NCBI GenBank assembly: GCA_016200345.1 | Contig: JACQEX010000005.1 | Coordinates: forward strand, 7,968-71,967 | DNA from: Nitrospinota bacterium | GTDB taxonomy: Bacteria; Nitrospinota_A; UBA7883; JACRGQ01 | Reading direction: 5' to 3' | Length of the DNA: 64,000 bases | In this document: piece after piece, positions 2,925 to 56,987 of the stretch | How positions within the stretch are numbered: position 1 is the stretch's first letter | How the letters are laid out: each line of letters starts with the position of its first letter | Translations under genes and position numbers: made by a program | The notes under the pieces: generated by a model | What the model saw: the letters and a program-made list of their open reading frames with translations, nothing else | Database searches by the model: none | What the model was told of the DNA's origin: nothing

Positions 2925-4619
2925 CTATGGAGAACCTGCGCTGATGGTGTAACTGCCGTACTCCGCCTTGGCAACCCCTTTTCCAGTGGCGCCGGTGTAC
3001 AGATATATGTCCGAGCTAACGTATGGCCTGTAAGGCTCGCAAAGCAGGTAGACGGTTTTTGTGCCGTTCGCCACCCAAACGATTTTCGAGGCGAGGTCGT
3101 TGTCCCCGTCCGTGTATGTGTTGTCCGGCGTCACGGCGTCGTTGTCCGCCTCGTAGTCGTCGTTCTGGGCCAGCATGGTCTTGCCGTCGGAGTCAAACAG
3201 GGTCAGCATCGTGTCGGCCCCGTCGCCGAGGCTCGACGTTGCAAACGTGTATTGAGACCCCGACCCGACGGAGATTGCATAATAATGTTTGGCGCCGGCC
3301 GGGAAAAAGTTGTGGACGGTCTGCGTGGTCCCGGGGGTTAGGGTGGTCAACGCGGTGCCGGTCGAACTGTGGGTGCCGTAGGCGTCGGCCACATACCTTA
3401 TCGTCCTGTCGCTTAAAATCGAGGCCATCTGGCCCGGATGGCCCGCGTTCCAGCCGTCGTAAAACCTGTCCAACGTCGCATATATGGCGCTTGTCATTCC
3501 CGGCAGGTATGTGGCAAAGGTGCTCCAAATGCTCCCGTCCGAAAGCCCAAGATAGGGGCTTGTGAGTGACGATCCGGTGGACGCATAAACGTGCCAAAGA
3601 ACGGTTGAGACCGCCAGTTCGTTGTCCGCTCCGGTGGCCTGTGACGAGTAACTCGGGCTGTCTATCTCAAACGCGAAGACCGTCCCGGAAAGCGGCGTTC
3701 CGTCGGCGTTGAGCCAGCCCGGAGTGTCCACGTACCATTTGGGGTAGTCCGCCCCGGTTATCGGCCTCAGGCTTCTGGACATGGCCGAAAAAAATGTAGC
3801 CCACCCCTCGGACCAAGTGAGCCGCAAATCGTAATGCATGTTTATGTAGTGCGCCCCACCGGGGGAGTTGTCCCTCGAATAGTTGGAGGCCGCGTAATGT
3901 CCCGTCTCGTGCATTACCACCGCGTCGTCGTACGCGTCGTTCCCCCCGGCGGCGACCGTGGACGCGCCGTAGACCGATATGGTGTTGCTACCGTTGGTGT
4001 AGTCGGTTCCGCTGTTCCCCTGGTACCAGACCCCCGTGACCCTTGACGGATAGCTTCCCGAGAGGAGGTGGTCAACGTCCTGCGCTCTTATAAGGCAGTC
4101 AAAGATGTTAAAGACGTTTCCCGCGTCGGAGTGGGAGGCCAGTAAATTCACTTTCCAAGACTGGCCCGAGGCGAATGTGAAATCGCTCGACCTAAGCGCG
4201 TAGGTCGCGGAGGCGTTGTCCACCACCGTCGCCGAATAGGGCGAGACCGCGTCGGAAAGTATGCGGACGTAAACCCCTCCCGTCACGGAGACGGAAGGAA
4301 ACGAATAGTAACCGGTGGAATCGCTCGTGGCGGTGGCTACGGCCGCGCCGTTTTGAACCAGTTCCACCCTGGCGTATCTAATCGGCGGCGCCGGGGAAAT
4401 CAGCCTGCCGGTGAGCCCCGACGAGTTCCATTCGAGTTTTTCATAAGTCGCCGTGCCGTAAATCGGCGAGGGGCCGCCGGGAGAGAGGGCCGGCGCGGTC
4501 AGCGAAACGCCGGGCGCCGAAGGGGATGCGACCGTCCCGCCGCTTGTCGAGCCGCTACAGGAGGAGAGCAGAGCGCACATCACCGCGGCAAGATACGCGC
4601 ATTTTTTAACGCGGTGCAT
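2925..4619 (-). CDS. Lipoprotein zinc metallopeptidase (HExxH...E) with C-terminal PPC-like domain
   Basis: Start reassigned to ATG 4619 (MHRVKKCAYLAAVMCALLSSC lipobox); HETGH plus downstream WSEGWA; DTMLTLFDSDG...NDD PPC-like motif; S/T/G rich. Confidence 0.75.
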   Translation of the reverse strand: MHRVKKCAYLAAVMCALLSSCSGSTSGGTVASPSAPGVSLTAPALSPGGPSPIYGTATYEKLEWNSSGLTGRLISPAPPIRYARVELVQNGAAVATATSDSTGYYSFPSVSVTGGVYVRILSDAVSPYSATVVDNASATYALRSSDFTFASGQSWKVNLLASHSDAGNVFNIFDCLIRAQDVDHLLSGSYPSRVTGVWYQGNSGTDYTNGSNTISVYGASTVAAGGNDAYDDAVVMHETGHYAASNYSRDNSPGGAHYINMHYDLRLTWSEGWATFFSAMSRSLRPITGADYPKWYVDTPGWLNADGTPLSGTVFAFEIDSPSYSSQATGADNELAVSTVLWHVYASTGSSLTSPYLGLSDGSIWSTFATYLPGMTSAIYATLDRFYDGWNAGHPGQMASILSDRTIRYVADAYGTHSSTGTALTTLTPGTTQTVHNFFPAGAKHYYAISVGSGSQYTFATSSLGDGADTMLTLFDSDGKTMLAQNDDYEADNDAVTPDNTYTDGDNDLASKIVWVANGTKTVYLLCEPYRPYVSSDIYLYTGATGKGVAKAEYGSYTISAGSP

Positions 4620-6303
4620 TGACCAGCTCAATGAGGGCGGAGTTGTCGTCCTCGTAAAGCGTTTTGCCGAATCGCGAGCTAAAATCTGCAAACACGTTCC
4701 ACGAGTCGCTCCGGGTTAAAAATTGTCTCATGACGCCCTTATTATAAATCACGTGGGTTATTTTTCTGGCGCCCAGCTCCCTGGCAATTTCGCCGGCGTC
4801 GGCATAGGGCTTTAAAAGCCTCATAAAAGTGATGCCGTCCCAGAAGGCGTCGTAATAATACGGCACGTCGCAATAATAAACTTGGTTCCCAAAAAAGACG
4901 AAATAGACCTTGTCCTTTTGGCCGAGGTGCGCGTTGGCGAACATCGTGGCGCCGTAGCCCGCCACCGTCTTTGACAAAAATTCTACGTTGGATTCCCTCC
5001 CCAAAAGCCGGTTCCAGCCCTCGAACCGCGAGGCCGCCAGCGCGTAGCCGCGCAGATCTAAAATCAATAGAAGCGCGGCGCCGCCAAGCGCTAGCGCCAC
5101 CCTTTTTTCCGCCAGCGCGGAGAGCCACCCCGCCGAGAGAAAAATCATGACTGGCAGTACCGGCAGATAATATCGTGCGGTTATGGCAAACAGCAGGCTG
5201 GCCGAGACCATAAAAAGTCCGGCGGAGGCCGCTAAAAATTTCCTGTCTCGGCCCGAAAAAAAGAACGGGGCGCAAAACATCCCAAAAATTAGGAGTAGTG
5301 GGTTAAGCCCGCCGTCGTACCCGCATTTGTTCCCCTCCTCCCCCTCGAAAAAAAGCCTGACGGGGGAGGCGAGGGCGTAGGCGAACGAATCCCCGCATAA
5401 GGCGACCCGTTCTTGCAACGGCCCGTGGAACATCGGGGCGGGGGCGGAGGGGTGTTCGTGGGCGAACCTAATCCACCACGGGGAGCAAAAAAATAGGGCG
5501 GCCAAAAACGAGGCTGACGCCACCTTAAGCCTTGGCGCCCATATGCGGCTCCTGAGGCAGTCGAGAAACAAAACCACGAGGATGCAGGCCAAAAACAGGC
5601 CGGCGTTGTACTTTATCGCGCTTGCCCCCGCCAGCGCCACGGCGCCTTTGTAGCCGTCCGCCGGGAGGTTTTCGCGCAGGTGGCGCCAAAAATAATATGC
5701 CCCGGCGCTGGAGAAAAATAGGACCGCCGGGTCGTTGTAGGCGGTCGTGGAAAGCCTGAAAAACAGCGGCTCCAAAAGTAGCGCACCGCCGGCAAAGATT
5801 CCCCATCCGGCTCCAAACTCCTCCTTTACCCAATGGGCCAAGACCAATGCGGTTCCGAGGTAAAAAAACGCGGGGAGGAACGAAACAGCCCGGTCCAGAC
5901 CGGCGTTTAAAAGCACCAGGTTAAATGGCAGGAGGGCGTTTGGGAACACGGAGCTTGGTTGAAACGGGATGGGAACCCACGCCCCGGCGTGGAGGATGTG
6001 CTTTGGGAGCGCTAGGTGGATGATGAGGTCGTCCCTAAAATACGGCGGAAGGGACGTCAGCCAAAAAACCCACGCCGCAAAAATCCCGAAGGCCGCCCTA
6101 GACCATGTCGGGAGCCCGAAAAATATCCCGCCCCTTGCGACGGTCCAAATTAGGGACGCCAGCCAGAGAAAAAGCAAAATCGAGCCGACGAGCAGGGCCG
6201 GTTTAAGCCCGGCCGTGTTTGCCATAGTGAACAGAAACACCCCCGCGACCGGCATGGAGATGAAAAGGAAAAATAACCTGTCAATTATCTGTTTGGACCC
6301 CAT
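4606..6303 (-). CDS. Polytopic membrane glycosyltransferase, GT-C (ArnT/PMT-like)
   Basis: 565 aa with many TM segments; RDDLIIHL acidic motif in the first loop; AYND, IKYN and RYYLP motifs. Confidence 0.7.
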   Translation of the reverse strand: MGSKQIIDRLFFLFISMPVAGVFLFTMANTAGLKPALLVGSILLFLWLASLIWTVARGGIFFGLPTWSRAAFGIFAAWVFWLTSLPPYFRDDLIIHLALPKHILHAGAWVPIPFQPSSVFPNALLPFNLVLLNAGLDRAVSFLPAFFYLGTALVLAHWVKEEFGAGWGIFAGGALLLEPLFFRLSTTAYNDPAVLFFSSAGAYYFWRHLRENLPADGYKGAVALAGASAIKYNAGLFLACILVVLFLDCLRSRIWAPRLKVASASFLAALFFCSPWWIRFAHEHPSAPAPMFHGPLQERVALCGDSFAYALASPVRLFFEGEEGNKCGYDGGLNPLLLIFGMFCAPFFFSGRDRKFLAASAGLFMVSASLLFAITARYYLPVLPVMIFLSAGWLSALAEKRVALALGGAALLLILDLRGYALAASRFEGWNRLLGRESNVEFLSKTVAGYGATMFANAHLGQKDKVYFVFFGNQVYYCDVPYYYDAFWDGITFMRLLKPYADAGEIARELGARKITHVIYNKGVMRQFLTRSDSWNVFADFSSRFGKTLYEDDNSALIELVNAPR

Positions 6304-18777: not shown

Positions 18778-21537
18778 ATGGGCGCTCTAAAAAATTTCAA
18801 ATTGTTCACTATAGTCTTGTTTTTCGCCGCGACTTCGTTTTTTCTAGTGGCGTGCAGCGGTGGCGGTGGTAGTTCCTCAACGGCAAGTAGCGGCCCGGTT
18901 GTCGGCGCGGTCGGCGTGACCGGGCTAACGATGGCCAGTAAAGTCAGCGCCGCCAGCGCCGGCACGGGCGGATCGCTAAAGCCGGACGTGATAGGGCTAA
19001 AGATTATGGACACGAAAGCCAATCTTAACGGGTGGGCCTCCACGGTGGACTACTACAAGGATACCACCAGCGTCTACACCCGTGAGAGGACGGACGAGGC
19101 CCTCCAGACCCCCAACATGATTCTTTGCATGATGAAGCAGGCGGCTTACGACACGATGGTCAACAGAGGGGATAAAAACGGATATTACATCGCGCAGGTC
19201 GATCAAAACCTCTGCTCCACGTCGCAGGATAGCGCGTCGAACGCCGGCAGTAGCAACCAGTCGTCCGGCTCGGCCGCGCCGAATTATTGGTTTTGGACGG
19301 TTCAATCCACCAGGGCGGACAGCAATCCCGGAACCCCTCAATACGTAAGAATATGGTTCCAGATGGACAAGGGCGGCGGCGGGAGCAATCAAAAGACCCA
19401 CGCCCTGATGCTGGTGGAAATTCTAATCACGTCCGGTTACACCACAACCAATCCGTACGGACTTTTCAATATGAACTTTGCCGCTTACCCGGCGGACGCC
19501 ACCGGTGTAATAACCTCCCAAACGCCGGTGATGAAGGGCATCCTTAGGGCGGTCAACGATCCCAACAACGCAGGTAAAGTTCTTTTGGAGTATTGGATGG
19601 CGGAGACGGGGGGAGGCCAGACCAACACTCAAGGGGCGACCGTCTCTAGGTCTTCGGACGGAGCGACCGGCGGAGGCGAGGTCACTTATACCGACTATAC
19701 TTGGGACAACACCAGTGGGCAGTCCACCGCCTCGCCAAAACGGGCCCGCTTTGCGTTCAGCACCGGCTCCGGCGCTTTCATAAGGCAAGGCCTCGATACC
19801 ACGTTGCCTTACAGCTCCTCCGGCGCCGCCATTTGTGAGGACACCGCTAACTTTAAGTATTCCGTCTGGAGCTACGGCATGTACGACGTCAACGGCGCAA
19901 GGGTAAACTTGATGTCGGGCTTCCCGATTAAGTATACCGACAGCAGAGATCATTACGGCTACGTCGGCAACTGGGGTATGAACTTCATGGACGACGTCAC
20001 GGTGGCCGACGGCGCCACAGTTTACAAGCAGGTCTGGTCGAATGGCGCGCCCTCTTCAACCCCCTACACGCTGAAAAAGAGCGGCGGTAAGCTGACTAAA
20101 TACACGCAGAGCGGGTCGTCCTTGAACCAACTTGACGGAGTGGGGTTGAGTTACGGCACCTCAAGCGGCGGTAGTTTTTCCAACTACAACCTGCATTGGA
20201 GCACCGCCTCCGGCGCGTTTGTGCTAGACTCCCTGTGGAATCAAAGCACCAACCAGATGACCCCGTTGACCGGCGCTTTGGACGTCTCCGCGTTGAAGTG
20301 GAACAATAACCTTCAAATGTTTTCCCAGTCTCTTGGCGGGCAGGTAATCATCATGCTACCGGCCTCCGGGGGATACTTCACAAGTTCCACGGCCAGCGGC
20401 ACTTTGGTGCCGGGGACAGGGACGACGTTTGGAGCAGGTACCGGTTCCGGCTGTTTGCTTACCCCCGCAGGATCCGGGAACAATTGGACAAATACTTGGA
20501 ATTGCTCATACGCGGTTTTAGATCCGGCGAAAATTGGGGTAATTTTCTACTCACGGCAGAATATATTCTCCGGCGATAGCGCGATATCCGGCACAGGGAT
20601 TACACTGACCTGTTATACCAACTGTCCGGACGCCACGGCGGTCGCCGCCAATGCGGGGGTGGCGTTCCTCCCGGCCTACGACGGCACCGGGAACCCGGTC
20701 CCCTACACCTACACGTTCAACAAGAGCGCCTACACCCTGAAGGACGGCACTGGCACGTCACTGGTCATGACCTCCAGCGGAAGCGGTTTGTCGGCAGGTA
20801 ATTACGGCGGCGGGGGGACCTTTAGTTGGGGTCTCCAAACTGGGGCGCTTTTCGACCCCACTGCGACGTTGACTACCGCCACGGGACAAACGATTACCTA
20901 CCTGCAAGCCCTGGCGTGTCCTTGGAATTCGGCCATGACCTGCGCTTGGAACGCCAGTAGCATTCTACCGGTTTATTATATTTGGGAGACCGGCTCGAAT
21001 CCTTGGAACACGCTTACCACGCTCCTTGACAGTTCAAACACGCCGTTGAAATTCGACGGCCAGGCGGACGTGGCCTACACGTATGGCAACGGCGCCGGAG
21101 CGTCGGGTAATTCTCTGGCTACCGACAACAAGTACAGCGGTAAAACTTTCCACCTGCAATACGGCGGTTTCGGTCAGTTGTGGGGCATCCCCGGTGTGTG
21201 CGTTAACGCGGACACCGGCGCGACGGACATAACGTGTAATATGAACGACAGGTATGTTCCGGAGTGGATAATACCGGCCGGTTCAAGCGCGAAGTATTCC
21301 TACACCAGTTCCGGCGGCACTTTGATATCCGGGACCGGCTACATCAAGGCGCTGGACGAGGAGAAACAGATGTTGTCAAAGACCTGTCCGGCTTACTCCC
21401 TGACTGCGTATACCATTCTGACGTCGGACGACTGGGTTGTTCCGGCCAACAGCCAGACCTTGCCGACCGTCATCAACCCGGCCCCGGCGGTCATAGCCGG
21501 AACGGTTCAATTGGCGGCGGGTACCGCGGCACATTAG
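18778..21537 (+). CDS. 919-aa S/T/G-rich surface lipoprotein of unknown function
   Basis: GGAGG RBS; lipobox FFLVAC followed by a SGGGGSSS tether; own promoter and terminator. Confidence 0.8.
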   Translation: MGALKNFKLFTIVLFFAATSFFLVACSGGGGSSSTASSGPVVGAVGVTGLTMASKVSAASAGTGGSLKPDVIGLKIMDTKANLNGWASTVDYYKDTTSVYTRERTDEALQTPNMILCMMKQAAYDTMVNRGDKNGYYIAQVDQNLCSTSQDSASNAGSSNQSSGSAAPNYWFWTVQSTRADSNPGTPQYVRIWFQMDKGGGGSNQKTHALMLVEILITSGYTTTNPYGLFNMNFAAYPADATGVITSQTPVMKGILRAVNDPNNAGKVLLEYWMAETGGGQTNTQGATVSRSSDGATGGGEVTYTDYTWDNTSGQSTASPKRARFAFSTGSGAFIRQGLDTTLPYSSSGAAICEDTANFKYSVWSYGMYDVNGARVNLMSGFPIKYTDSRDHYGYVGNWGMNFMDDVTVADGATVYKQVWSNGAPSSTPYTLKKSGGKLTKYTQSGSSLNQLDGVGLSYGTSSGGSFSNYNLHWSTASGAFVLDSLWNQSTNQMTPLTGALDVSALKWNNNLQMFSQSLGGQVIIMLPASGGYFTSSTASGTLVPGTGTTFGAGTGSGCLLTPAGSGNNWTNTWNCSYAVLDPAKIGVIFYSRQNIFSGDSAISGTGITLTCYTNCPDATAVAANAGVAFLPAYDGTGNPVPYTYTFNKSAYTLKDGTGTSLVMTSSGSGLSAGNYGGGGTFSWGLQTGALFDPTATLTTATGQTITYLQALACPWNSAMTCAWNASSILPVYYIWETGSNPWNTLTTLLDSSNTPLKFDGQADVAYTYGNGAGASGNSLATDNKYSGKTFHLQYGGFGQLWGIPGVCVNADTGATDITCNMNDRYVPEWIIPAGSSAKYSYTSSGGTLISGTGYIKALDEEKQMLSKTCPAYSLTAYTILTSDDWVVPANSQTLPTVINPAPAVIAGTVQLAAGTAAH

Positions 21538-22676: not shown

Positions 22677-24029
22677 ATGAAAGAACGAAAGATTATTCTC
22701 GCGGAAAGGGAAATCCCGCGCAAATGGTACAACGTCATGGCGGACATGCCCAACCCCGGCTCCCCGCCGTTGCATCCCGGCACCAAACAGCCGATAGGCC
22801 CCGCGGATCTTGCGCCGTTGTTCCCCATGCCGATTATCGAGCAGGAGGTAAGCACCCAAAGGTGGATAGACATACCGGAGGAGGTGCTCGACGTTCTTTC
22901 GTTGTGGAGGCCGACACCGCTTTTCCGCGCCTACAACCTGGAGAAGGCGATCGGCACCCCGGCGAAGATTTTTTACAAATACGAGGGGGTTGCCCCCTCC
23001 GGAAGCCACAAGCCGAACACCGCCGTCCCGCAGGCCTACTACAACAAAATCAGCGGCACCAAGCGGATAGCGACGGAGACCGGCGCCGGACAATGGGGAA
23101 GCGCGCTAAGTTTTGCCTGCGCCAAGTTCGGGCTGGAATGCACCGTCTACATGGTCAAGGTCTCGTTCCAACAAAAGCCCTATAGGCGGATAATGATGGA
23201 GACCTACGGATCCAAGGTCATGGCATCGCCGACCAACACGACAAACTCCGGCAGGAAAATTTTGGAGCAAAACCCCGATTCCACGGGCTCGCTCGGCATC
23301 GCCATTTCCGAGGCGGTGGAGGACGCGGCGACGCACGACGACACGAAATACTCCCTCGGCTCGGTGTTGAACCACGTTTTGTTGCACCAGACCGTCATAG
23401 GTTTGGAGACGAAAAAGCAGTTGGAGATGGTCGGCGAAAAGGCGGACGTGCTAATAGGCGCGTGCGGTGGCGGAAGCAACCTCGGCGGGCTTGTTTTGCC
23501 GTTTGTTCCGGACAAGCTTGGCGGCCAGAAAATAAGAATGGTCGCGGTGGAGCCGTCTGCCTGCCCCACGCTTACAAGGGGCGTTTACGCCTACGATTTC
23601 GGCGACACGGTGGGGCTTGCCCCGCTGGTGAAGATGTACACCCTCGGCTCGCAGTTCATGCCGGCGGGGATACACGCGGGCGGATTACGCTACCACGGCG
23701 ACTCGCCGCTTATTTCGCAGTTGGTGCACGAGAAGATGATTGAGGCCGTGGCCTTTTCGCAACTCGACACGTTCGAGGCGGCCACTCTCTTTGCCAAGAC
23801 GGAGGGGATAATCCCGGCGCCGGAATCCGCCCACGCCATAAAGGGGGCGATAGAGGAGGGCAAGAGGTGCTCGCGCGAGAACAAGTCCGAGACGATCGTC
23901 TTTAACCTGTCCGGCCACGGATATTTCGACCTCTCGGCCTACGACGACTTTACGAACAGAGAGCTTGTGGATCTCAAACTCTCGGAGGACGAGCTTAAGA
24001 GGACGCTGGCCGCGCTTCCGCAGATATGA
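22677..24029 (+). CDS. trpB2: Tryptophan synthase beta chain, type 2 (TrpB2)
   Basis: 450 aa; [19 protein letters not shown] lysine, [19 protein letters not shown]. Confidence 0.93.
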
Positions 24030-25228
24030 CAAAGAAAGGGGCCGCCCAACTGCCGGACAAGCGGGGGTATTTTGGGAATTTCGGGGGGAAGTACGTCATA
24101 GAGACGCTCGTCCCGGCCCTCGACCAGCTGGAGAAGGAATACCTAAAGGCGAAGCGGGACAAGCAGTTCCAAAAGGAGCTCGCCAATCTTTTGGCCGACT
24201 ACGTCGGACGGGAGACCCCGCTTTATTTCGCGAGCAGGCTGACCAAACTTCTCGGCGGCGCAAAGATTTATTTGAAGCGCGAGGATTTAAACCACACAGG
24301 CGCCCACAAAATTAACAACACCATCGGCCAGGCCCTGCTTGCAAAGAAAATGAAAAAGACCCGCGTGATAGCCGAGACCGGCGCCGGGCAACACGGCGTG
24401 GCGACGGCATCCGCCGCCGCACTGCTCGGGCTTAAGTGCGAGGTGTTCATGGGCTCCGAGGACATGGAGCGCCAAAAACTGAACGTATACCGGATGAGGA
24501 TGATGGACGCCACCGTCGTGCCCGTCACATCCGGGAGCAGGACGCTGAAGGACGCGATGAGCGAGGCGATGCGGGACTGGATTTCGACCGTGGGAAACAC
24601 CCATTACATAATCGGCTCCGCCGCCGGGCCGCACCCTTTTCCGATGATGGTGCGCGATTTTCAGTCGGTGATAGGCAGGGAGGCGAGAAAACAGATTCTG
24701 CACAAGGAGGGTCGCCTGCCGAATCTACTCGTCGCCTGCGTAGGCGGCGGTAGCAACTCCATCGGGCTTTTTCACGCCTTTTACGAAGACGCCAAGGTGA
24801 GGATGACCGGCGTGGAGGCCGGGGGCAAGGGGCAGGCAATCGGGCAACACGGCGCGTCGCTAACGCGCGGGAGCGTGGGCGTTCTGCACGGTAGCAAAGG
24901 CTATCTGTTGCAGGACGACAACGGGCAGATAGCCGAGACGCACTCGGTTTCGGCCGGGCTGGACTACCCCGGCGTCGGCCCGGAGCACTGTTTTTACAAG
25001 GATAGCAAACGAGCCGAATATGTGAACGTGACCGACGAGGAGGCGATAGAGGCGTTCGGCATGCTTAGCCGGACGGAGGGGATAATGCCCGCGCTTGAAA
25101 GCGCACACGCAATCGCGCACGTCCAAAAAATTGCGCCGAAAATGCGCAAGAACGAGATTATTGTGGTCTGCCTTTCGGGGCGCGGCGACAAGGACGTGGA
25201 CAGAATGGCCGCGCTGAGGGGAAAATGA
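24026..25228 (+). CDS. trpB: Tryptophan synthase beta chain, type 1
   Basis: [41 protein letters not shown]. Confidence 0.97.
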
Positions 25229-26028
25229 TCGAGACTTCGAGAATATCCGAAAAATTCGCCGCGCTAAAGGCGGAAAAGAAAAAAGGGCTGATTATTTTCG
25301 TCACCGCCGGCGACCCGGATTTGGGGACCACCGAAAGGCTTGTGCCGGAGCTTTTCAAGGCGGGGGCGGACGTGGTGGAGCTTGGCATACCGTTCTCCGA
25401 CCCGCTCGCGGACGGGCCGGTGATTCAGCAGTCGTTCAAACGCGCGCTGGACAACGGAGCGACGCTGGGGCGCATTCTGGACTCCACTAGAAGAATCCGC
25501 GAGCACTCGGACGGCCCCATCGTCTTTATGTCGGCTTACAATCTGGCGTTTCATTTCGGCTTGCCAAAGTTTGCAAAGATGGCGGTCCTGTGCGGGGTTG
25601 ACGGAGTCATTTTTCCCGACTTGATACCGGAGGAGGCGGAGGAGTCCAATTCAGCGTTGAAGGCGATTGGGTTGGACACGATATTTTTGGTCGCGCCGAC
25701 CACAAGCCCGGCAAGGACAAAAATGATAGCCTCGAATTGCGGCGGGTTCGTATACTACGTCTCGGTGTCCGGCGTCACCGGCGGTCAAAAACCGCTGGTG
25801 GAGGAGGTTAAGGGGCGCGTGGCTATGATTAAGCGGAACACCGACCTGCCGGTCGCGGTCGGGTTCGGCATCTCCACCCCGGAGCAGGTCGGCGTGATGG
25901 GGAAACACGCGGACGGCGTAATCGTCGGTAGCGCGGTGGTGAAGGCGATGGAGGGACTTTCTCCGGCCAGGGCCATTGAAAGCGCGGTCGGGCTCGTGCG
26001 CTCTTTGCGGACGGCGTTGGATAAGTAG
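25225..26028 (+). CDS. trpA: Tryptophan synthase alpha chain
   Basis: [42 protein letters not shown]. Confidence 0.97.
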
Positions 26029-26620: not shown

Positions 26621-27352
26621 TTAGTCGTTATTTATTTGCGGCGGGGGGAGGAAAAGGCCGTCCGCGATTTCGCCTCCCTTCTCAACCCAGTTGAAGACGA
26701 AAGATATTTCCGAGTTAATCGAAACGGTCAGCGCCTCGGTCCCGTACGCGTATGAAAACTTCACGAGTCCGTCGTCGCGTTTTATAACCGCGCTTATGAT
26801 TCTCCATTCGCCGTCAAACTCCCATTTCTTTGTCAACCCGGCCCATTTTGCCGAAAGTTTTTTGCCGGAAAACTCCAGGGAGGCGGCCGCCAGCCCGGCC
26901 GGGTCGAATGACGGATACAAGTTTTCTATGACGTCTTCCGGGACGATTTTTAGCGGGCCGAGTTTTATGGGAACGCCAAGCTTTCTTTCAACCAGCGTCG
27001 GGGCCCCGTCTTTCGGCTCGGTGTAGAAAACGGACTCCTCGTTCACCACCAGCAAAAACCATGCGGTGCCGAACGCGTCGTGAAACATCGCCTTGAGTTT
27101 CGCCGGCCTTTTCAGGGCTACGGACGCCTTGGACGACGGTTGTTTCATTCTGGGGGCAAACTCCGCCCTTCCGGACATCCGCATCGAGTTGAACGGAGGG
27201 TTTGCCGCCGCCAATTTTTCCAAAACGCGCGACCGCTCCACGGCGGACGGCGGTTTGACCGGCGCCCCGGCGCAGGCGGTAATTAAAAGGGCGGCGGTCA
27301 AAAGTCCCAGCCCACGACGGGTTTTGCGGAAAAATCGGACGGGATTACTCAC
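26621..27352 (-). CDS. LolB-like / DUF4292-type lipoprotein
   Basis: Lipobox LLITAC; LolA/B-like strands (VALKRPAKLK...FG); directly downstream of a TPR lipoprotein gene. Confidence 0.6.
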   Translation of the reverse strand: MSNPVRFFRKTRRGLGLLTAALLITACAGAPVKPPSAVERSRVLEKLAAANPPFNSMRMSGRAEFAPRMKQPSSKASVALKRPAKLKAMFHDAFGTAWFLLVVNEESVFYTEPKDGAPTLVERKLGVPIKLGPLKIVPEDVIENLYPSFDPAGLAAASLEFSGKKLSAKWAGLTKKWEFDGEWRIISAVIKRDDGLVKFSYAYGTEALTVSINSEISFVFNWVEKGGEIADGLFLPPPQINND

Positions 27353-27364
27353 GTGGGAAATGGC

Positions 27365-29674
27365 TCACTTTTGGTCCGGCGCGTCCAAGAAGCCGTCCGA
27401 GGCCGTGCCCATGTTTCGCTTCTCCCTAATCTTGGCGCGGACTTTTCCCTCCCTTGTCGGATCCGCCATATTCCGCGTTTTCTCGATTTTTTGGTAAACC
27501 GCCGGGTCCACTTTAATTTTGACGGAGGCGGAATACGACTCAATCGCCTTGTCCCAGTTTTTCATCGCAAAATATATGTCGCCAAGGTGGTCCATAACCG
27601 TGGGGTCTTTTTCCTTCAAATCCGCCACCGCCTTAAGGATTGTTTCCAGCGCGAGGGGGTAGTTTTTTTCCTTGTAGTAAATCCACGCGAGGCTGTCCTC
27701 GTAATACCCGTTGTTTGGCTCTATCTCCATCGCCCGATCCACGTACTTCTTCGCCTCGGCCAGGTTCTCGCCCCCGTCCGCGTAAATATACCCTATGTAG
27801 TTAAGCGCGTCGCCGAACTTCGGGTTCAGCTCCACCGAGCGCTTCATCGCCTCGACGCATTTTTTATAATCCTGGGTTTTTTCGTAGACGACGCCCAGGT
27901 AAAAATGCACCTCGGCCTTTTGTGGCGCGATTTTTATGGAGCGCTCCAACTGCTCTATGGCCTTGGGATACTGCTCCTTTTTCACGTATAAAAGCCCGAG
28001 CATGTAAGCCAGCTCCGGGTCGTCCTTTTTAAGTCCGTCCGCCCTTAGGAGCGCCGCCTCGGCCTTGTCATAATTTTTCAGTTTTTCGTAGTCGCCCGAT
28101 ATGCGCACGGTAATCTCGGTCTTGTCGCTGTCCGTGGGGGCGGATTGAAAAAGGATTTCCCACTCGTCGGCGGCCTCTTGGAAAAGCCCCAGCTCCTCGT
28201 ACGCCCTTGCTATGTAAAACGGCACGACCTTGTTCGTGCCGTCGTTCAGCCGGAAGAGCTGGAGTTTTTCCAACGCCTGTTTGTAGTCCCCCTGCTGGAA
28301 GTAAAGAACGCCCATTCTAAACGGCAAATCGCCGGAGTTGGATTCGTTCAACTCCAAGTTTTTGTACACGTCCAGCGCCTCGCCGTAAGATTTCTTAAGA
28401 AGGTATACGTTTGCAAGGCGCTCCTGCAACTCGTGGTCGGGCGGATAATTTTCCAGATATTTTTTGTAGACCTCTATGGCCGGGTCGTATTTTTTCTGGA
28501 TGGAGTAAACCCACCCGAGCGTGGCGTAGCCCTGCGGGACGTCCGGGAAATCCAGAATGAATTTGGACAAAAACTCCTCCGCCTTGTAATAGTCCTTCAT
28601 CTCGACGTACGTCTTCGCCAAAAAAAGCATCGCCGTAACGGACGACGGGTTTGCCTTTAGCACCCCCAGGAACTCCTTCTCGGCGTTCTCGGGCTCTTTT
28701 AGCTCAAGATAGTTGTAGGCCAGGTTAAGGCGCACGTCCTCCCTGGTCGGGTCGCTGGCGATGGCCTTTTTCAAATACTCCTCGGCCCGCTTATATTCCT
28801 TGGAGTTGTGGTAGATGACGCCGAGCATGGAGTTTATCTGGACGTTGTCCGGTTCCAGCGCAAGCCCCCTTTGCGCGAAGCTCACCGCGTCGGAATATTT
28901 TCCCAACAACAGCGAGAGCCTCGCCAAATCTTCGTACGAGTCAACAAAGTACGGGTTGAAGTCCAAAATAAACTTAAGGTCGGCGATCGCCTCGGTTATT
29001 TGGTTTTCGTTCACCCGCATCTGGGCGCGCATAAAGTAAAATGTGGTGTCTCTTTCGATCTCCGACTTGCGCGCGAGTTCCTCCGCGGTCAGCTTTTTAC
29101 CTAATTTGGCCTTTTTTGCGATGGCCTGTTTCGCCTGTATTTCCGCCGGCGTGTTCTTTCCGCTTTGGGATGGCGCGCTAATCGTGGCGCAGGCCGAGGC
29201 CGTGCCGGCCACGAAGGCGAAAAACAGTAGTTTTTTTCCCCTCGCCAGCCCCACGGAGACGAGATGCGCAAGCGCGCCTTTTATCTCCGGGTCTTTGACA
29301 ATCTCAAGGGCCGCCTCCGTCTCCGCCGGAATCTCCGTCGCTGGAGCCAAGGCGTTTTTGACGTAATTTCCCGATGCTTTTTTCTCGTTGTATCTTATGC
29401 TGATGCCTTGCACTGGTGTGTCTCCTCCAAGAATTTTTTGCGTCTTCGCTAAAATTGCCATGCGCGAGTAGTCCAACGGCGCCAAAAACGCCGGGTCGTT
29501 CACGTGGACTATCAGGTTTTTTTGCCAGATATAGGCCGGACTGCAAACGCCGGCTAGGTCTTTGCCTACAATTTGCTCCCAGGCGGCGCTAATTTTGACA
29601 AGTTTCGCCACCGTGCCAAGTTTGACGCCCCCCAAAGCGCCTTCAAGAACATCTTTGATAGAAATCAACTTCAA
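27365..29674 (-). CDS. DciA(DUF721) domain fused in frame to an internal lipobox and long TPR array
   Basis: Residues ~1-140: AWEQIVGKDLA...P...LIVHV DUF721 pattern; RGKKLLFFAFVAGTASAC (Cys162); then many TPRs; no stop between the parts. Confidence 0.75.
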   Translation of the reverse strand: MKLISIKDVLEGALGGVKLGTVAKLVKISAAWEQIVGKDLAGVCSPAYIWQKNLIVHVNDPAFLAPLDYSRMAILAKTQKILGGDTPVQGISIRYNEKKASGNYVKNALAPATEIPAETEAALEIVKDPEIKGALAHLVSVGLARGKKLLFFAFVAGTASACATISAPSQSGKNTPAEIQAKQAIAKKAKLGKKLTAEELARKSEIERDTTFYFMRAQMRVNENQITEAIADLKFILDFNPYFVDSYEDLARLSLLLGKYSDAVSFAQRGLALEPDNVQINSMLGVIYHNSKEYKRAEEYLKKAIASDPTREDVRLNLAYNYLELKEPENAEKEFLGVLKANPSSVTAMLFLAKTYVEMKDYYKAEEFLSKFILDFPDVPQGYATLGWVYSIQKKYDPAIEVYKKYLENYPPDHELQERLANVYLLKKSYGEALDVYKNLELNESNSGDLPFRMGVLYFQQGDYKQALEKLQLFRLNDGTNKVVPFYIARAYEELGLFQEAADEWEILFQSAPTDSDKTEITVRISGDYEKLKNYDKAEAALLRADGLKKDDPELAYMLGLLYVKKEQYPKAIEQLERSIKIAPQKAEVHFYLGVVYEKTQDYKKCVEAMKRSVELNPKFGDALNYIGYIYADGGENLAEAKKYVDRAMEIEPNNGYYEDSLAWIYYKEKNYPLALETILKAVADLKEKDPTVMDHLGDIYFAMKNWDKAIESYSASVKIKVDPAVYQKIEKTRNMADPTREGKVRAKIREKRNMGTASDGFLDAPDQK

Positions 29675-29760: not shown

Positions 29761-30954
29761 TTAAACCGCAACGCGCTTTCTGAGTTGTGTTGAAGGCTTA
29801 TAACGAGAATGGGTATTTGCACTCAATAGGCCGAACAATTCGGCACCGATAGCGTGAGCCAACCGTACTGGGACGGCGTTTCCGATTTGTCTCATTGCCT
29901 CCCCCCAAGTACCTGAAATTACATAATCATCAGGGAAGGTTTGAATTCTTTTGGCCTCCAAAACCGTAAAATATCTTATTTTGTCGTTCCTGAATCGAAT
30001 CATATTTTCCCCGCCCGGGACTCCATGCCCTCCGGCTTTTATAGTTTTTGAAGGCTGGTCATAATCACTACCGCTATGGCCGGAATATGACCTCGCACCG
30101 TCTCGGTAAATATGGTCTTGAATGCCATGGTCGGAATTAGGGCTTGGAAGGTTGGAAATGGCATCTCTGACCGTAAGCCAAGCACTTCCCGTTGGAGGAA
30201 ACATTCCAAATTTATTTATCAGTTCTTCTTTCAACATCTTTAACTCTGTTGTTGTTGCGTCCCACTCCGATTTTTTAACTTTATGCCTTTCCCAATATTC
30301 ATTCGTCGAATATTTCTCCCACTGCAACCTCTCCCGGCTATGGGTCGGTTTTGGAAATTTCCAGCTTAGGTTTAAATCGTCTCGTAATCCGACGATAACG
30401 ACGCGCTCCCTTGTTTGAGGCACGCCATAATCGGCTACATTAAGGAGCGCATAGCTTACATTGTATTCCGCATTTCCGCCGTCCAAACTCTGGTCGTGTC
30501 GGAGCGAGGTTAGATGCTTTGTCCACGAAACAAAGCTCGTGGCCTCATGGGAAGGTTGCCTTAGCCGCCTAATAATGTATTCAAAATAATCGGCAAACGA
30601 CTCCCTTAACAACCCCTTTACATTCTCAAAGATAAAGGCCTTTGGGGACAAAGTTTCAATTGCTTTAATCGCGTAAGGGAACATATCTCTGTTGTCATCT
30701 TTTCCAAGATGTTTTCCCCCCAATGAAAAGGGTTGGCATGGGGGGCCTCCGGCGATAAGGTCAACGGATGAGAAGTTGTTAAAATCCACGTTGCGAACGT
30801 CCGCCTCTTGGACAATTTCCGACGAGTAATTTTTCCTTAATGAAAGGCAGGCATCTTTATTAAATTCGACAAACGCCTTGTGTTGAAACCCGGCCGCCTC
30901 CAGTCCGCAGGCCAAACCTCCTGCCCCGGAGAACAATTCCAGCGAAGTGAACAT
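29761..30954 (-). CDS. C5-cytosine DNA methyltransferase, M.Eco29kI-like
   Basis: ELFSGAGG, GGPPCQPFS, ENVKG, YGVPQTRER, QIGNAVP; AT-rich. Confidence 0.93.
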   Translation of the reverse strand: MFTSLELFSGAGGLACGLEAAGFQHKAFVEFNKDACLSLRKNYSSEIVQEADVRNVDFNNFSSVDLIAGGPPCQPFSLGGKHLGKDDNRDMFPYAIKAIETLSPKAFIFENVKGLLRESFADYFEYIIRRLRQPSHEATSFVSWTKHLTSLRHDQSLDGGNAEYNVSYALLNVADYGVPQTRERVVIVGLRDDLNLSWKFPKPTHSRERLQWEKYSTNEYWERHKVKKSEWDATTTELKMLKEELINKFGMFPPTGSAWLTVRDAISNLPSPNSDHGIQDHIYRDGARSYSGHSGSDYDQPSKTIKAGGHGVPGGENMIRFRNDKIRYFTVLEAKRIQTFPDDYVISGTWGEAMRQIGNAVPVRLAHAIGAELFGLLSANTHSRYKPSTQLRKRVAV

Positions 30955-31582
30955 CAGGCGCTGCCTAAGGCGGTCATATGGGAGGCAATTTTGTCAATTA
31001 TTGATTTTTTGGCGTTATGTTTGCCTAAACATTTTTTCGCCCAGTATGGATTACGTTCCAATCTGGTTTAGCCCCGTCGTATCGCCCTTTACCCGGGTCG
31101 TGGTTTCCAAATCCGTCTAATACGGAGTTCCACAACGGTTTGTGTATTTTTATCAGGGCGGCCTCTATCGTGCCGATCATATCCGAGCCTTCGCTTTCAA
31201 AAATTACAAACCGGCACATGAAATCTTTGGAGGAGAGGTCAACAAGGTCAACGCTCCTTTTGTGTTGTGCGAGTCTTCCACAAAGCTCATTTGAGCGGTT
31301 TTCAGCTTTATCGTGCGTCCTTGATTGTCTCCATCCGCGAGGCACGGCCTTTCCCACATAAATCGGGAAATTGTATGAGAGGCGGTTTAGGAGAAAATAT
31401 TTTTCGTAAAGAGGACGTTTCCCAATGTAATAAAGGGCGTAAATGCCGCTTCCGGTAAATTTTTCCGCGGGAGGCAGATGGTGAACCGGCGTGCCGTTGA
31501 AAAACCTTACCGCGTCTTTGATTAGCTCGACTAATCCGTCGTTACGGTAAACATGTTTATTGCGGTCAAACCCCTGCTTCAT
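30954..31582 (-). pseudogene. Eco29kI-family GIY-YIG restriction endonuclease, frameshifted near the C-terminus
   Basis: GIYALYY...IYVGKAV, R-x3-H, IEAALI, LWN...DGFGNH. The ORF stops at 31025, but the -1 frame continues KCLGKH... to a TGA overlapping the MTase ATG. Confidence 0.8.
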
Positions 31583-51209: not shown

Positions 51210-52583
51210 ATGACCCCCGAAGATCCGCAGGAAAACGACGAAAGTCAGCCGGGAAAGGCTTTTTCCGCGCCACACGGCCCGCTTAACGTCATTATCTCCG
51301 AGGGGGAATTCGTAAAACCGCTCGGCGACTCGGCGGTTCCCTTCTTCGCGCTTCTTTCGGTAGCGCTTGCGGACAGGCGGAATTTCAACAACCAGTTTTA
51401 CTTCAACCTCCTAAACGAGGCGGAAAAACTGGAGGTGTTTCTAGACGACCACGGCGCGAAGGAAAACATCACCTGGTATTACTTTCGCGAGATAATCGCC
51501 AGCATCCGAAACTGCGCCATAGCCGCGTTCCAATTAAGCCACATCCTTAACAGGTACGGCGACTACCACCCCGCCGAGCCGGCCCAATATTCCGCCGAAT
51601 TTCTTTCCCAGGGCGCGGACGCGATGGCGCACCTAAATAATTTCGTAGCCGTTCTGGGTAACGAGGCGGTGGCGGAGCTAAAAAAACTCGGGTGCGAGGT
51701 CTGCATGACGACGCCGGGAATCCCGGACTACAAGGACATCGGGAGCGTCGCAAAGCTTCCCCGAAACCTGCAAATGGAAAATTTCAAGACGAGCGAGCGG
51801 ATGATAATGCACATCGCCGAAAGCTACCGCAGAATCGCCGTAAAGGTAAACCGCGAGCACTTCGGAAAAAAGACCCCGCCCGCCGAGTTCGCAAACATGA
51901 TTCCCACGAGAATCAACGAGACGAAGATAAAAATACTCGAAAGCTCCCTGCACAACATCCAGTCGGAGTACGACACCCACATCCGCATGACGGGCAACGC
52001 CACCAACGACGCCGACCTGCTGGGACTGCGGGCATTTATATCGGCGCCGATGCACCTGCTGGAAATGGCGAGGTGGCTGATACACTTCTACGAACGGCAC
52101 GAGAGCGAGAGCTATTCCGGCGTGGGGCGCGGCAACGTGGCGCACCTGGTGGATAAAAACCTCGTGCTGGGGCTTGTCTCCGGCTTCGCGCTCTTTTTCG
52201 CCCACAGGTTCATGATGATGGGAAAAAGACAGGCCGAACAGATTATGTCGCGCATGGTTAGAATGACGCGGATTACCGTCCCGGTTCCGAAACCCGCCGG
52301 GTTTCACGCCCGCCCCGCATATTATGTGACCATAGTGGTGGAAGAGCACGGAACGGACGCGTTTTTGATAGTGGACGGGAGGAAGTTCGACGCCCGCTCG
52401 GTTTTGGACATTCTGGAGGCCGGCGGCATAGCGGCGGACAAAGAGCTGGAGACGGTGGAGTTCGAGGGGGACGAAAGAACGCTTACGGACCTAAAAATTC
52501 TTTCGGACTCCAACTTCTGTGAGAACGAGCAGATTCCCAAGGAGCTTAACTACATAAGAATAGCAAGGAACATAATGGTATGA
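51210..52583 (+). CDS. Large helical protein with C-terminal HPr domain
   Basis: GFHARPA (HPr His motif) and FDARSVLDIL near the C-terminus. Confidence 0.8.
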   Translation: MTPEDPQENDESQPGKAFSAPHGPLNVIISEGEFVKPLGDSAVPFFALLSVALADRRNFNNQFYFNLLNEAEKLEVFLDDHGAKENITWYYFREIIASIRNCAIAAFQLSHILNRYGDYHPAEPAQYSAEFLSQGADAMAHLNNFVAVLGNEAVAELKKLGCEVCMTTPGIPDYKDIGSVAKLPRNLQMENFKTSERMIMHIAESYRRIAVKVNREHFGKKTPPAEFANMIPTRINETKIKILESSLHNIQSEYDTHIRMTGNATNDADLLGLRAFISAPMHLLEMARWLIHFYERHESESYSGVGRGNVAHLVDKNLVLGLVSGFALFFAHRFMMMGKRQAEQIMSRMVRMTRITVPVPKPAGFHARPAYYVTIVVEEHGTDAFLIVDGRKFDARSVLDILEAGGIAADKELETVEFEGDERTLTDLKILSDSNFCENEQIPKELNYIRIARNIMV

Positions 52584-55074: not shown

Positions 55075-55959
55075 TTAGAAGGGATTCTCAATTGTTTTAT
55101 TAATTGGGGGATTCTCAAGTTTGTCGTCCAGTTTTTCCTGCAAAAGCTTTACAAAATCACCTACATTACCCTGCAAAGGGGTAGTGATGGAAAAAAGAGA
55201 AGATGTGAATTCCGTATATATCTCGTCAACGACCTTTAGTCTATACTTTGGAGCTCCAGTATTTTTGTCCTCTTTCAATTCTAGGTCATATATAAACCAC
55301 GCCATATCAGCCTTTGATTGCGCAACTTTTTTAAGAGTCGGAAGCGTGGAAAAAAATCGTTTGTCGAGGGCGACGGCGCATTTCCTTTTCCAATTATGGA
55401 GAATTCCGCCCTTAAAAAGTAGCTGTGGCGCCAGTCTCTTCCTTGAGGATGAGAGAAAATCAGGACGGGGGTATCTGGGTTGTTTTGACCAGTCCATTAA
55501 TCCGCGTTCCGACGGTTTTTCCATATAATGCTCGAATGGGTCGCGCACATTGCCCGAAATATAAACGGCCTGAACCTCCAAGGCGCCGAAATCCACGACT
55601 TTACCGTTTTTATCGTAGGCTACCAAAATTACGTCAATGTTCCCCGCGGATTTCCCGTTCTTGTCGTTGAGCCGAACCTCGGTGAGGGAACTCCACTTTG
55701 TTCCCTCCTTAAAGAAAAACCTCGCGGCATCGTCAGTGATAATCCAATCCTCGCGGAAACGAATGGGGCAGGTTATTACCGGATGGTTTTTGTGAAAAAT
55801 CGAACATACTCCCAACGGATTTTTTGCCTTGTCCTTCGTGCAATTTGGCACGATGTTGTTGAACGGGCAATATTGATGCGAACGGTACCGTTTTGCGACA
55901 GTGGATTGGTCGGTTGTCAGGTGGCCGAAGACTTCCGCCAAAGGATGTTTGGGGGTCAT
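55075..55959 (-). CDS. NotI-family restriction endonuclease
   Basis: Start reassigned to ATG 55959 (MTPKHPLAEVFG); CPF...C.K...GVCS...CPIRF Cys4 metal site; GNIDV...LEVQAVY. Confidence 0.8.
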   Translation of the reverse strand: MTPKHPLAEVFGHLTTDQSTVAKRYRSHQYCPFNNIVPNCTKDKAKNPLGVCSIFHKNHPVITCPIRFREDWIITDDAARFFFKEGTKWSSLTEVRLNDKNGKSAGNIDVILVAYDKNGKVVDFGALEVQAVYISGNVRDPFEHYMEKPSERGLMDWSKQPRYPRPDFLSSSRKRLAPQLLFKGGILHNWKRKCAVALDKRFFSTLPTLKKVAQSKADMAWFIYDLELKEDKNTGAPKYRLKVVDEIYTEFTSSLFSITTPLQGNVGDFVKLLQEKLDDKLENPPINKTIENPF

Positions 55960-55982
55960 GTTCGGCCACTTAAAGCAAACAT

Positions 55983-56987
55983 CTAAACCAAAAACTTTTT
56001 GGCGGTTTCGACGTCGTCGTTGCTTCCTATATACAACGCGGTGCGCTGGTGCAGGGCCGTAGGCACGATGTCTAAAATCCTTTTGCCGGTCGCGTCCACC
56101 GCCTGCCCCCCCGCCTGCTCCGCTATGAACGCAAGCGGAATCGCCTCGTACATCAGCCGTAGCTTTCCCTGCGGGCTTCTCTTGTCGGGCGGATACATAA
56201 ATATCCCCCCCTTCGTGAGGTTTCTGTGGAAGTCCGCGACGAGCGAGCCGATGTAGCGCGACGAGTACGGCCTTCCGGTCGCCTTGTCGTCGGAGACGAA
56301 ATAATCCACCATCTTTTTTGTTTTGTCGTCCCAGAAAATTCTGTTCCCCTCGTTGACGCTGTAAATGCCCCCTTTTTTCGGCGATTTGATGTTCGGGTGA
56401 GAGAGGATGAACTCGCCAACGCCGGGGTCGAGCGTGAAGCCGTGGACCCCCAGACCGGTGCTGTATACGAACATCGTGGACGAGCCGTAGACCGCGTACC
56501 CGGCGGCGATCATCTGGTTGCCCGGCTGAAGGAAATCCTCCGCCGCGCATTTCGGGCCGGTTGATTTTTTCTTAAAAATAGAAAATATACTGCCGATGCT
56601 CACGTTCACGTCTATGTTTGAGGAGCCGTCCAGCGGGTCGAATAGCAGGACGTATTTGCCGCCCTGCGGGTGTCTGTCGGGGATGGGGATATAATCGTCC
56701 ACCTCCTCCGAGGCCATGCCGCAGAGATAGCCGGTGTGGTCCATCTTGTGGATTATGGTCGTGTTGGCGAAGACGTCGAGTTTTTGTTGAATCTCCCCCT
56801 GTATGTTCGTGGTTCCCGCCTGGCCGAGGATGTTCATAAGCCCCGCCTTGTTGACCTCGTAAGCGATTACCTTGAGCGCGACCACCAGCTCGTAGAGCAT
56901 CCCGGAAAAATCGCCCTTCGCGCCCGGAAACTGGCGCTGTTCCTCCATTATTTTTTTTGTTATCGTCGTTCCAAGCCTGGTAGTCAT
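55983..56987 (-). CDS. fbp: Fructose-1,6-bisphosphatase class 1
   Basis: EIQQKLDV, FDPLDGSSNID, RYIGSLVADFHR, KLRLMYE. Confidence 0.97.
   Translation of the reverse strand: MTTRLGTTITKKIMEEQRQFPGAKGDFSGMLYELVVALKVIAYEVNKAGLMNILGQAGTTNIQGEIQQKLDVFANTTIIHKMDHTGYLCGMASEEVDDYIPIPDRHPQGGKYVLLFDPLDGSSNIDVNVSIGSIFSIFKKKSTGPKCAAEDFLQPGNQMIAAGYAVYGSSTMFVYSTGLGVHGFTLDPGVGEFILSHPNIKSPKKGGIYSVNEGNRIFWDDKTKKMVDYFVSDDKATGRPYSSRYIGSLVADFHRNLTKGGIFMYPPDKRSPQGKLRLMYEAIPLAFIAEQAGGQAVDATGKRILDIVPTALHQRTALYIGSNDDVETAKKFLV

Follow-up and report, generated by a model that had tools for sequence, protein, structure and literature searches.

DciA is a core replication-initiation factor, the loader of the replicative helicase. 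The DciA of Vibrio cholerae (VcDciA) needs its C-terminal tail to bind and load DnaB, and this tail folds onto the LH-DH module (PMC9912922). Blaine et al. 2022 (bioRxiv 10.1101/2022.01.24.477630; J Bacteriol) reported 36 DciA homologues with tetratricopeptide repeats (TPRs) from Nitrospinae and Ca. Rokubacteria, and treated this DciA-TPR architecture as replication-associated, by analogy with eukaryotic replisome TPR proteins. TPR genes are also known from a different setting: TPR-gene/lolB pairs have been documented in β- and γ-Proteobacteria, outside of which no lolB could be found by homology or synteny (Smith et al. 2023, PMC9963962). Here, we analyze a dciA-TPR gene from a 64-kb stretch of a Nitrospinota genome (assembly GCA_016200345.1, contig JACQEX010000005.1; the whole stretch is referred to as the window), in which a DciA domain leads, through what appears to be an internal lipoprotein signal peptide, into a TPR array. 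The domain pair is known; new here are the lipoprotein signal peptide inside the chain, the ancestor-type operon with unfused genes, and the predicted two-compartment topology of the product.

The gene lies in a single open frame at 27365..29674 on the minus strand, with in-frame TTG codons at 29674 and 29668. An AAGGAG Shine-Dalgarno (SD) motif at 29680-29675 is spaced 6 nt from the second TTG and sits immediately against the first. All relatives begin with MI[SL]IKD at the codon matching 29668, each behind an SD motif of its own, and the likely start is this second TTG, two codons within the 769-codon open reading frame (ORF). Taking it as the start gives a product of 767 residues, of which a 100% identical copy of 767 residues exists in the database (P0001). 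The lipobox cysteine, numbered Cys162 in a first-pass annotation of this DNA, then becomes Cys160, with its nucleotides (29191-29189) unchanged. With the start moved in this way, the description given by that annotation, of one frame holding a DciA domain, a basic-hydrophobic-lipobox segment, and a TPR array, proved correct (Table 1).

The proposal that DciA is here truly fused to an envelope TPR lipoprotein also held up in comparisons. The gene is identical at 2304 of 2304 nucleotides in contigs from two other sequencing runs (loci L001 and L002). Seven full-length fused relatives of 743-761 residues (P0002-P0008) share 48-59% identity with the window protein at 96-98% coverage, and one more relative is a fragment. 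A further fused relative (P0121, 737 residues) is 37% identical over its N-terminal part; it came from an exhaustive HMMER search with residues 1-205, whereas a word-indexed homologue search with the N-terminal 240 residues returned no match. Across this range of 37-59% identity, all nine fused relatives have one frame and the invariant cysteine. The junction contains no stop or frameshift in any of the fused relatives, and the several indels that distinguish the linkers of these proteins are every one in frame. The fused relatives found so far come from groundwater metagenome-assembled genomes (MAGs) of Nitrospinota/Nitrospinales where the source is named, and otherwise from unnamed metagenome contigs; only three species representatives in the GTDB genome collection, all of them Nitrospinota, have the fusion. 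MAGs with the fused gene include GCA_041643115.1, GCA_023248615.1, GCA_016212275.1, and the JACQBU01 assembly. Both halves are under purifying selection, and we regard it as nearly certain that the fusion is real and translated as one protein.

The unfused state is preserved in four sister loci, one of them in assembly GCA_024275955.1 (L029) and three on contigs found by a metagenome scan (L032, L033, and L034), in which dciA is directly followed by an orthologous TPR lipoprotein gene. The DciA proteins of these loci have 96-100 residues (Pfam DciA, E 1e-13 to 1e-15) and share 38-43% identity with the fused proteins in the DUF721 domain; the closest stand-alone DUF721 relatives are likewise proteins of 94-99 residues. 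The TPR protein has an N-terminal signal peptide in all four loci, with the lipoboxes LFTSC and ISFGC in L033 and L034, and the small lipoprotein gene that follows the fused gene is also present in L029 and L032. In L032, dciA and the TPR gene overlap by ATGA. In L029, the 99-residue dciA ends with TAG, followed by a single codon, CCG, and then by the ATG of the TPR gene in the same frame. The TPR protein of this locus (585 residues, N-terminus MQNSLASMRTVLGAFLLLFAIFLSSC-ATK) is 44% identical to residues 136-724 of the window protein over 589 residues, signal peptide included (E 6e-165), and its small lipoprotein (232 residues) is 29% identical to the protein encoded downstream in the window (E 1e-24). 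Neighbor-joining trees built from the DUF721 part agree with those built from the TPR part: in both, the fused proteins (P0121 included) are monophyletic and the unfused operon versions are their sisters.

These comparisons point to a single old in-frame fusion of adjacent operon genes that became fixed in the clade, for which the simplest history would be one loss of the dciA stop codon in the clade ancestor. The first-pass annotation had offered a lost dciA stop as an alternative to a functional fusion. As history this stands, given the unfused sisters and the TAG plus one codon of L029; as an error in this particular genome it does not, the event being old and fixed. Compared with the short unfused DciAs, the fused proteins have ~50 additional residues, which make up the linker and tail; the ancestor may have possessed a long DciA, or the sisters may have lost the tail. 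In L029, given the same-frame TPR start 3 nt further on, one substitution in the dciA stop would recreate the fusion. Immediately ahead of this stop, at L029 5287..5300, Gly-Gly-Gly codons form a homopolymer of at least 9 G that doubles as the SD region of the TPR gene.

Judged from profiles and a structural model, the DciA half is intact in both its DUF721 domain and its C-terminal tail helix. The match to Pfam PF05258 (DciA) scores 47.4 bits (E 2.4e-12; cut-off 24), covering positions 2-89 of the 89-position profile; the match spans residues 6-93 of the 769-codon ORF as queried, that is, residues 4-91 in P0001 numbering. A profile built from fused and stand-alone homologues matched the DUF721 domain of Deinococcus radiodurans DciA (PDB 7ykm, E 1.7e-14) and VcDciA (8a3v_C, E 1.3e-3). 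An AlphaFold2 (AF2) model of residues 1-203 shows a helix at 127-142 and a DciA core with predicted local distance difference test (pLDDT) values of 90-97. The top three Foldseek matches of this model in the PDB were 8a3v_C/D and 7ykm, the latter with a TM-score of 0.83 normalized to the target, a root-mean-square deviation of 1.8 Å, and prob 1.00. Next in the list were chains of the SirA-DnaA domain I complex (4tps), as expected for a KH-like fold, and the model together with these matches supports the KH-like fold shared with DnaA domain I. DUF721 is the best-conserved region of the fused proteins, with a mean pairwise identity of 73%; the TPR part reaches 60% and the linker 28%. Of the 93 columns at residues 1-93, 45 are invariant in the fused-protein alignment. 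Stand-alone DciAs of ~160 residues, VcDciA among them, are colinear with the fused protein to about residue 146. They share a tail helix, DP-x-L-[KR]-x-x-L, whose version in the window is KDPEIKGALAHL; the DPxLKxALxxL helix at residues 126-136 has 52% identity versus 28% in the linker. The stand-alone proteins stop 10-25 residues past this motif, where the hydrophobic segment of the fused proteins begins.

This segment resembles a lipoprotein signal peptide in all its parts. The junction reads R143-G-K-K / LLFFAFVAGTASA / C160-A-T. A hydropathy scan over 15 residues gave the same single strong peak for the window product and each of its seven full-length relatives; in the window product it lies at residues 147-161, with a Kyte-Doolittle mean of 1.99 over 15 residues. 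In six fused proteins, the core of PROSITE PS51257 matches once per protein and always ends at the invariant cysteine, and the lipobox, uncharged h-region, and basic n-region that mark a PS51257 lipoprotein are all present. Among the fused proteins, the n-region follows the pattern G-[KRP]-[KR], the residues at -3/-2/-1 are lipobox-compatible, and the h-region consists of 12-14 uncharged residues, which is a typical signal-peptide length but short for a stable membrane helix. The equivalent of Cys160 is invariant in 9 aligned sequences and in P0121, within a region of 37-40% identity. The lipobox cysteine begins a C-A-T/S motif in fused and unfused forms alike, followed in the fused form by a Gly/Pro/Ser/Lys-rich tether, and the internal segment can be aligned to the signal peptide at the N-terminus of the unfused L029 protein. 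Because the cysteine and the lipobox are invariant while their surroundings drift, the junction signal peptide appears to remain under selection.

Pfam TPR families span approximately residues 208-720 of the window product, and the F/YYF..A motif at the end of the tether is common to the fused proteins and the unfused TPR lipoproteins. Beyond the sister lineages, the nearest TPR homologues are 560-595 residues long and share 23-29% identity at 61-74% query coverage. The distant homologues (P0010, P0013-P0019, P0022, P0024, P0029, and P0034), from Desulfobacterota-type and other MAGs, all have an N-terminal lipobox, and an F/YY[HY]F motif follows the tether as in the fused proteins. The genes upstream of these are unrelated to dciA, and downstream there is again a lipoprotein of ~256 residues. 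The TPR half is thus homologous over its full length to a lipidated TPR family that is paired with DUF4292-type lipoproteins. NCBIfam returned only sub-threshold TPR equivalogs for it (PrsT, MamA, and PilW), so that no specific function can be assigned.

The lipoprotein gene downstream of the fused gene, which the first-pass annotation called LolB-like, is kept in this position in L001, L003, L005, L006, and L030, and next to the unfused TPR gene in L029 and L032. The window protein itself matches no Pfam or NCBIfam family even at E 10, LolB and DUF4292 included. A PDB sequence search gave nothing meaningful, a homologue search returned only the protein itself, and an AF2 single-sequence model (pLDDT 41) was too poor for a structure search. 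When compared as profiles, however, the Nitrospinota downstream lipoproteins match the DUF4292-type neighbors of unfused TPR lipoproteins (hhalign 96.4%, E 1.3e-9), and one such neighbor, that of L009, matches DUF4292 (PF14125) with E 1.4e-13 and, weakly, LolB with 5e-4. By profile-profile comparison, the gene product is a lipoprotein of putative DUF4292 type, a candidate divergent member of the DUF4292 / LolA-LolB-like family, for which the term LolB-like has only indirect support through transitive profile evidence. Pairs of a TPR lipoprotein and a DUF4292/LolA-LolB-like lipoprotein of ~230-257 residues occur in Nitrospinota, Desulfobacterota-type, and other MAGs. The pairing resembles the TPR-lolB synteny, and the DUF4292-like partner may be a candidate LolB analogue.

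Translation appears to proceed from a single start. Across the 45 codons preceding the cysteine, no SD-preceded in-frame ATG, GTG, or TTG is conserved among the fused relatives, and L003 is without any candidate, so that in at least some members of the clade the TPR half would be made solely as part of the fusion. The suggestion of nested starts made at first pass was not borne out, although its remark that the internal GTG at 29254 has no evident SD motif was accurate, none being found in the 20 nt upstream. No promoter was found near the junction; the only promoter-like site on the gene strand lies in the DUF721 coding region. An internal promoter or a leaderless transcript was rejected because promoter-like counts did not rise above the shuffled background. 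An A7 run at 29237-29231 on the minus strand, within the Gly-Lys-Lys codons of the n-region, is probably incidental. A -1 shift at this run would end after 17 codons and yield a soluble DciA of ~163 residues with a basic tail. Programmed frameshifting was rejected as a conserved mechanism: L003, L006, and L030 lack the run, and the distances to out-of-frame stops range from 4 to 94 codons.

Table 1. Coordinates of the fused gene and its parts, candidate internal starts ahead of the lipobox cysteine, and small lipoprotein genes paired with TPR lipoproteins.
Feature	Locus	Position	Strand	Remarks
Fused gene	window	27365..29668	(-)	767 codons plus stop (27365-27367); likely start TTG 29668
DciA / DUF721 KH-like domain	window	29390..29668	(-)	residues 1-93; Pfam, PDB profile, AF2 and Foldseek
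Variable low-complexity linker	window	29297..29389	(-)	residues 94-124; 28% identity, in-frame indels among relatives
Conserved DciA C-terminal tail helix	window	29243..29296	(-)	residues 125-142, KDPEIKGALAHLVSVGLA; motif DPxLKxALxxL
Predicted internal lipoprotein signal peptide	window	29189..29242	(-)	n-region R143-G-K-K146, h-region L147-A159 (13 residues), lipobox A-S-A-C160
Post-Cys polar tether	window	29054..29188	(-)	residues 161-205, Gly/Pro/Ser/Lys-rich, 37% identity; ends at F/YYF..A motif
TPR array	window	27464..29053	(-)	residues 206-735; Pfam TPR families and homology to lipidated TPR proteins
Downstream lipoprotein gene (small lipoprotein of pair)	window	26621..27352	(-)	243 residues, LLITAC; 12 nt past fused-gene stop
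Candidate internal start	window	GTG 29254		codon 139, 21 codons before Cys; no SD-like motif in 20 nt upstream
Candidate internal starts	L005			TTGs 27 and 31 codons before Cys; distal TTG behind a weak AAGG/AGGA at 11-12 nt, the other TTG with no SD motif
Candidate internal start	L006			ATG 20 codons before Cys; no SD motif
Candidate internal start	L007			none closer than 38 codons to Cys
Candidate internal start	L003			no ATG/GTG/TTG in 45 codons before Cys
Small lipoprotein of pair	L009	6788-7558		
Small lipoprotein of pair	L010	2401-3174		
Small lipoprotein of pair	L011	3161-3934		
Small lipoprotein of pair	L029	7058-7756		
Small lipoprotein of pair	L032	6161-6916		

We propose a model in which the 146-residue DciA part would remain cytoplasmic, while the internal basic-hydrophobic segment would act as a signal/anchor taking the ~600 following residues across the inner membrane via Sec. 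Lgt would lipidate Cys160, and signal peptidase II (LspA) would then cut before it. The products would be a mature TPR lipoprotein, working with the DUF4292-like lipoprotein as in the unfused relatives, and a DciA whose C-terminus, the retained 13-residue h-region, would anchor it in the membrane unless trimmed off by signal-peptide peptidases. The lipoprotein-maturation machinery would in this way resolve the fusion post-translationally, which would explain how both halves stayed functional. We infer export of the TPR part because its orthologues are exported and it is still under selection, and processing by Lgt and LspA because the cysteine and the lipobox are invariant in drifting surroundings. 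An N-in/C-out topology is very probable in our judgment, and cleavage at Cys160 has somewhat better than even prospects. The complete model, with cytoplasmic DciA and an exported TPR precursor split at Cys160 by Lgt and LspA, is the best overall and moderately probable. We advance only tentatively its furthest consequence, a natural "polyprotein" from which LspA frees the TPR lipoprotein and leaves the organism's only DciA tail-anchored, so that helicase loading would take place at the membrane.

Several points weigh against this model. Both the export and the Lgt/LspA processing are predictions from sequence. Position is the single lipoprotein rule that the junction breaks: the cysteine lies at residue 160 from the only supported start, whereas it is expected within the first ~15-35 residues of a precursor, and we found no paper offering a bacterial precedent for a processed internal lipobox. 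The h-region is only moderately hydrophobic, and targeting after a folded domain of 146 residues is not guaranteed; residues -3 and -1 are, moreover, compatible with signal peptidase I too. The trees that place the unfused operons as sisters are simple neighbor-joining trees with no support values. A second, free DciA may exist elsewhere in these genomes, since the analysis covered the 64-kb window. The window itself encodes one DciA only, and the ORFs scanned in it include no member of a dnaB, dnaA, or dnaC/dnaI-type family. Single-domain DciAs are reported for some Nitrospinae (Blaine et al. 2022, 10.1101/2022.01.24.477630). Our literature search returned no DciA with a lipoprotein or membrane segment.

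The main alternative, possible but rather unlikely, is an uncleaved bitopic N-in/C-out protein that holds DciA at the inner face of the membrane, tethered to a periplasmic TPR domain, with the cysteine lipidated but uncleaved or otherwise kept. Membrane tethering and release by signal peptidase II were the two fates named in the first-pass annotation, and both survive here as the two live models. The same evidence on topology serves either one, and there are many type II membrane proteins whose cytoplasmic N-domain is large. An internal lipobox also falls outside the position that Lgt and LspA are known to accept, and the hydrophobic stretch of the window protein grows to ~19 residues if the CATISA after the lipobox is counted. 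Several relatives, however, pass straight into Gly/Pro/Lys-rich polar sequence and have just 12-14 hydrophobic residues. A cysteine and lipobox-compatible residues at -3/-2/-1 that stay invariant over 37-59% divergence would be hard to explain if unused, and an anchor would leave only ~5 residues between the bilayer and the DnaB-binding-type tail, an awkward arrangement if a helicase hexamer is to dock there.

The remaining explanations fare worse. If the TPR lipoprotein were made from an internal codon, with read-through from dciA being incidental, GTG codon 139 would give MGLARGKKLLFFAFVAGTASAC, a textbook lipoprotein signal peptide, and L006 has an ATG 20 codons before the cysteine. The candidates nevertheless lack SD motifs, agree in neither position nor identity of the codon, and are missing altogether from L003 and within 38 codons from L007; the junction has no promoter-like site, and separate translation would not maintain one frame through an indel-rich linker in 10 divergent sequences. 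We therefore consider nested starts improbable. It is more improbable still that the TPR array is a cytoplasmic replisome-adaptor module of a specialized DciA and the hydrophobic segment an incidental linker, as is implicit in Blaine et al. 2022. TPRs do mediate protein-protein contacts, and the architecture has been filed under "domains associated with DNA replication". However, sister genomes encode an orthologue of the array (44% over 589 residues) as a protein of its own with an N-terminal lipobox, the homologous lipoproteins of other phyla have no dciA upstream, the lipoprotein operon partner is retained, and the hydrophobic segment, the n-region charges, and the cysteine are all conserved. 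An assembly or sequencing artefact, or a recent pseudogenizing stop loss in this genome only, might be suspected, since a single base error could merge adjacent same-frame genes and the window has its A7 run at the junction. This has next to no probability and is already refuted by the comparative data: independent assemblies are identical, at least 10 divergent fused proteins are known from different studies and sources, and both halves are under purifying selection. A coupling of replication initiation to envelope biogenesis, put forward at first pass, found no backing either. Nothing in the data points to a regulatory link; they show joined neighbor genes, both under purifying selection. 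dciA and the TPR gene were already adjacent before they fused, perhaps through operon structure alone.

Directly upstream of the fused gene in the window, between cobU and the dciA-TPR gene, there is a type II restriction-modification pair at 29761..30954 (-) and 31025..31582 (-), consisting of a C-5 cytosine methyltransferase (PF00145, E 1.4e-65) and an Eco29kI-family endonuclease (PF09517). The pair is missing from this position in L003 and L004, where a CheD-response-regulator gene adjoins the fused gene instead, which gives the pair the appearance of an inserted island. The methylase gene of L002 is annotated with 342 residues, fewer than the 397 in the window. A second restriction enzyme gene, of the NotI family (PF12183, E 1.4e-63), lies at 55075..56550 (-). 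Two consecutive PALP-family (TrpB-like) genes at 22677..24029 (+) and 24026..25228 (+), which look like a trpB2/trpB1 pair, precede trpA at 25225..26028, and this arrangement, with a DUF4337 gene, is kept beside the dciA-TPR operon in L001, L003, and L005. Four long ORFs, at 18778..21537 (+), 2925..4691 (-), 51210..52583 (+), and 57340..58548 (-), encoding 919, 588, 457, and 402 residues, match no Pfam family at E ≤ 1e-5.

Our results suggest a different reading of the Nitrospinota DciA-TPR proteins, in which the TPR half is a formerly separate neighbor lipoprotein, predicted to be exported, rather than a replisome module, and the fusion should not serve to infer partners of DciA. More generally, the locus is a worked example of how loss of a stop codon can fuse translationally coupled genes whose products belong to different compartments, and it calls for caution in "guilt by fusion" (Rosetta-stone) prediction. 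It also provides a natural test of whether Lgt and LspA recognize a lipobox far from the N-terminus, and of the fate of a large cytoplasmic "n-region". If LspA does resolve a polyprotein here, this would be the first documented action of Lgt and LspA 160 residues into a chain, and no membrane-bound DciA would have preceded it. A DciA that stays anchored would be a rare example of a core replication-initiation factor held at the membrane.

Among described systems, the architectures of Blaine et al. 2022 are close, with the same Pfam set (DciA, TPR repeats, and ANAPC3-type matches) in the same phylum, and P0004 and P0008, both annotated "DUF721 domain-containing protein [Nitrospinae bacterium]", presumably belong to their set of 36. 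That survey dealt with Pfam domains only; the words "membrane" and "transmembrane" occur 0 times in it, and neither the lipobox nor the gene neighbors are mentioned. The stand-alone DciAs of V. cholerae (8A3V), D. radiodurans (7YKM), C. crescentus, and M. tuberculosis have the same KH-like fold, variable linker, and C-terminal helix, but they are soluble and end 10-25 residues past the tail, whereas the fused chain runs on into the signal peptide and 600 putatively exported residues. The unfused operon of dciA, TPR lipoprotein, and DUF4292-like genes consists of orthologous genes in the same order as at the fused locus. It differs in having separate ORFs, divided by a stop and a 3-nt spacer or joined by an ATGA overlap, a DciA of 96-100 residues without linker or tail, and an N-terminal signal peptide. 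In the TPR-lolB synteny of β- and γ-Proteobacteria, a TPR gene is likewise followed at once by the gene for a small outer-membrane-type lipoprotein from the LolA/LolB superfamily, although in the window the partner is DUF4292-like instead of a Pfam LolB and ispE/prs are not adjacent. ToxR and CadC are type II (N-in) bitopic regulators with cytoplasmic nucleic-acid-binding and periplasmic domains. They match the topology predicted for the uncleaved precursor, with a cytoplasmic N-domain, one membrane segment, and a large periplasmic C-domain, but their anchors are not lipoprotein signal peptides, they are not fusions of two genes, and they have no sequence relationship to the protein described here.

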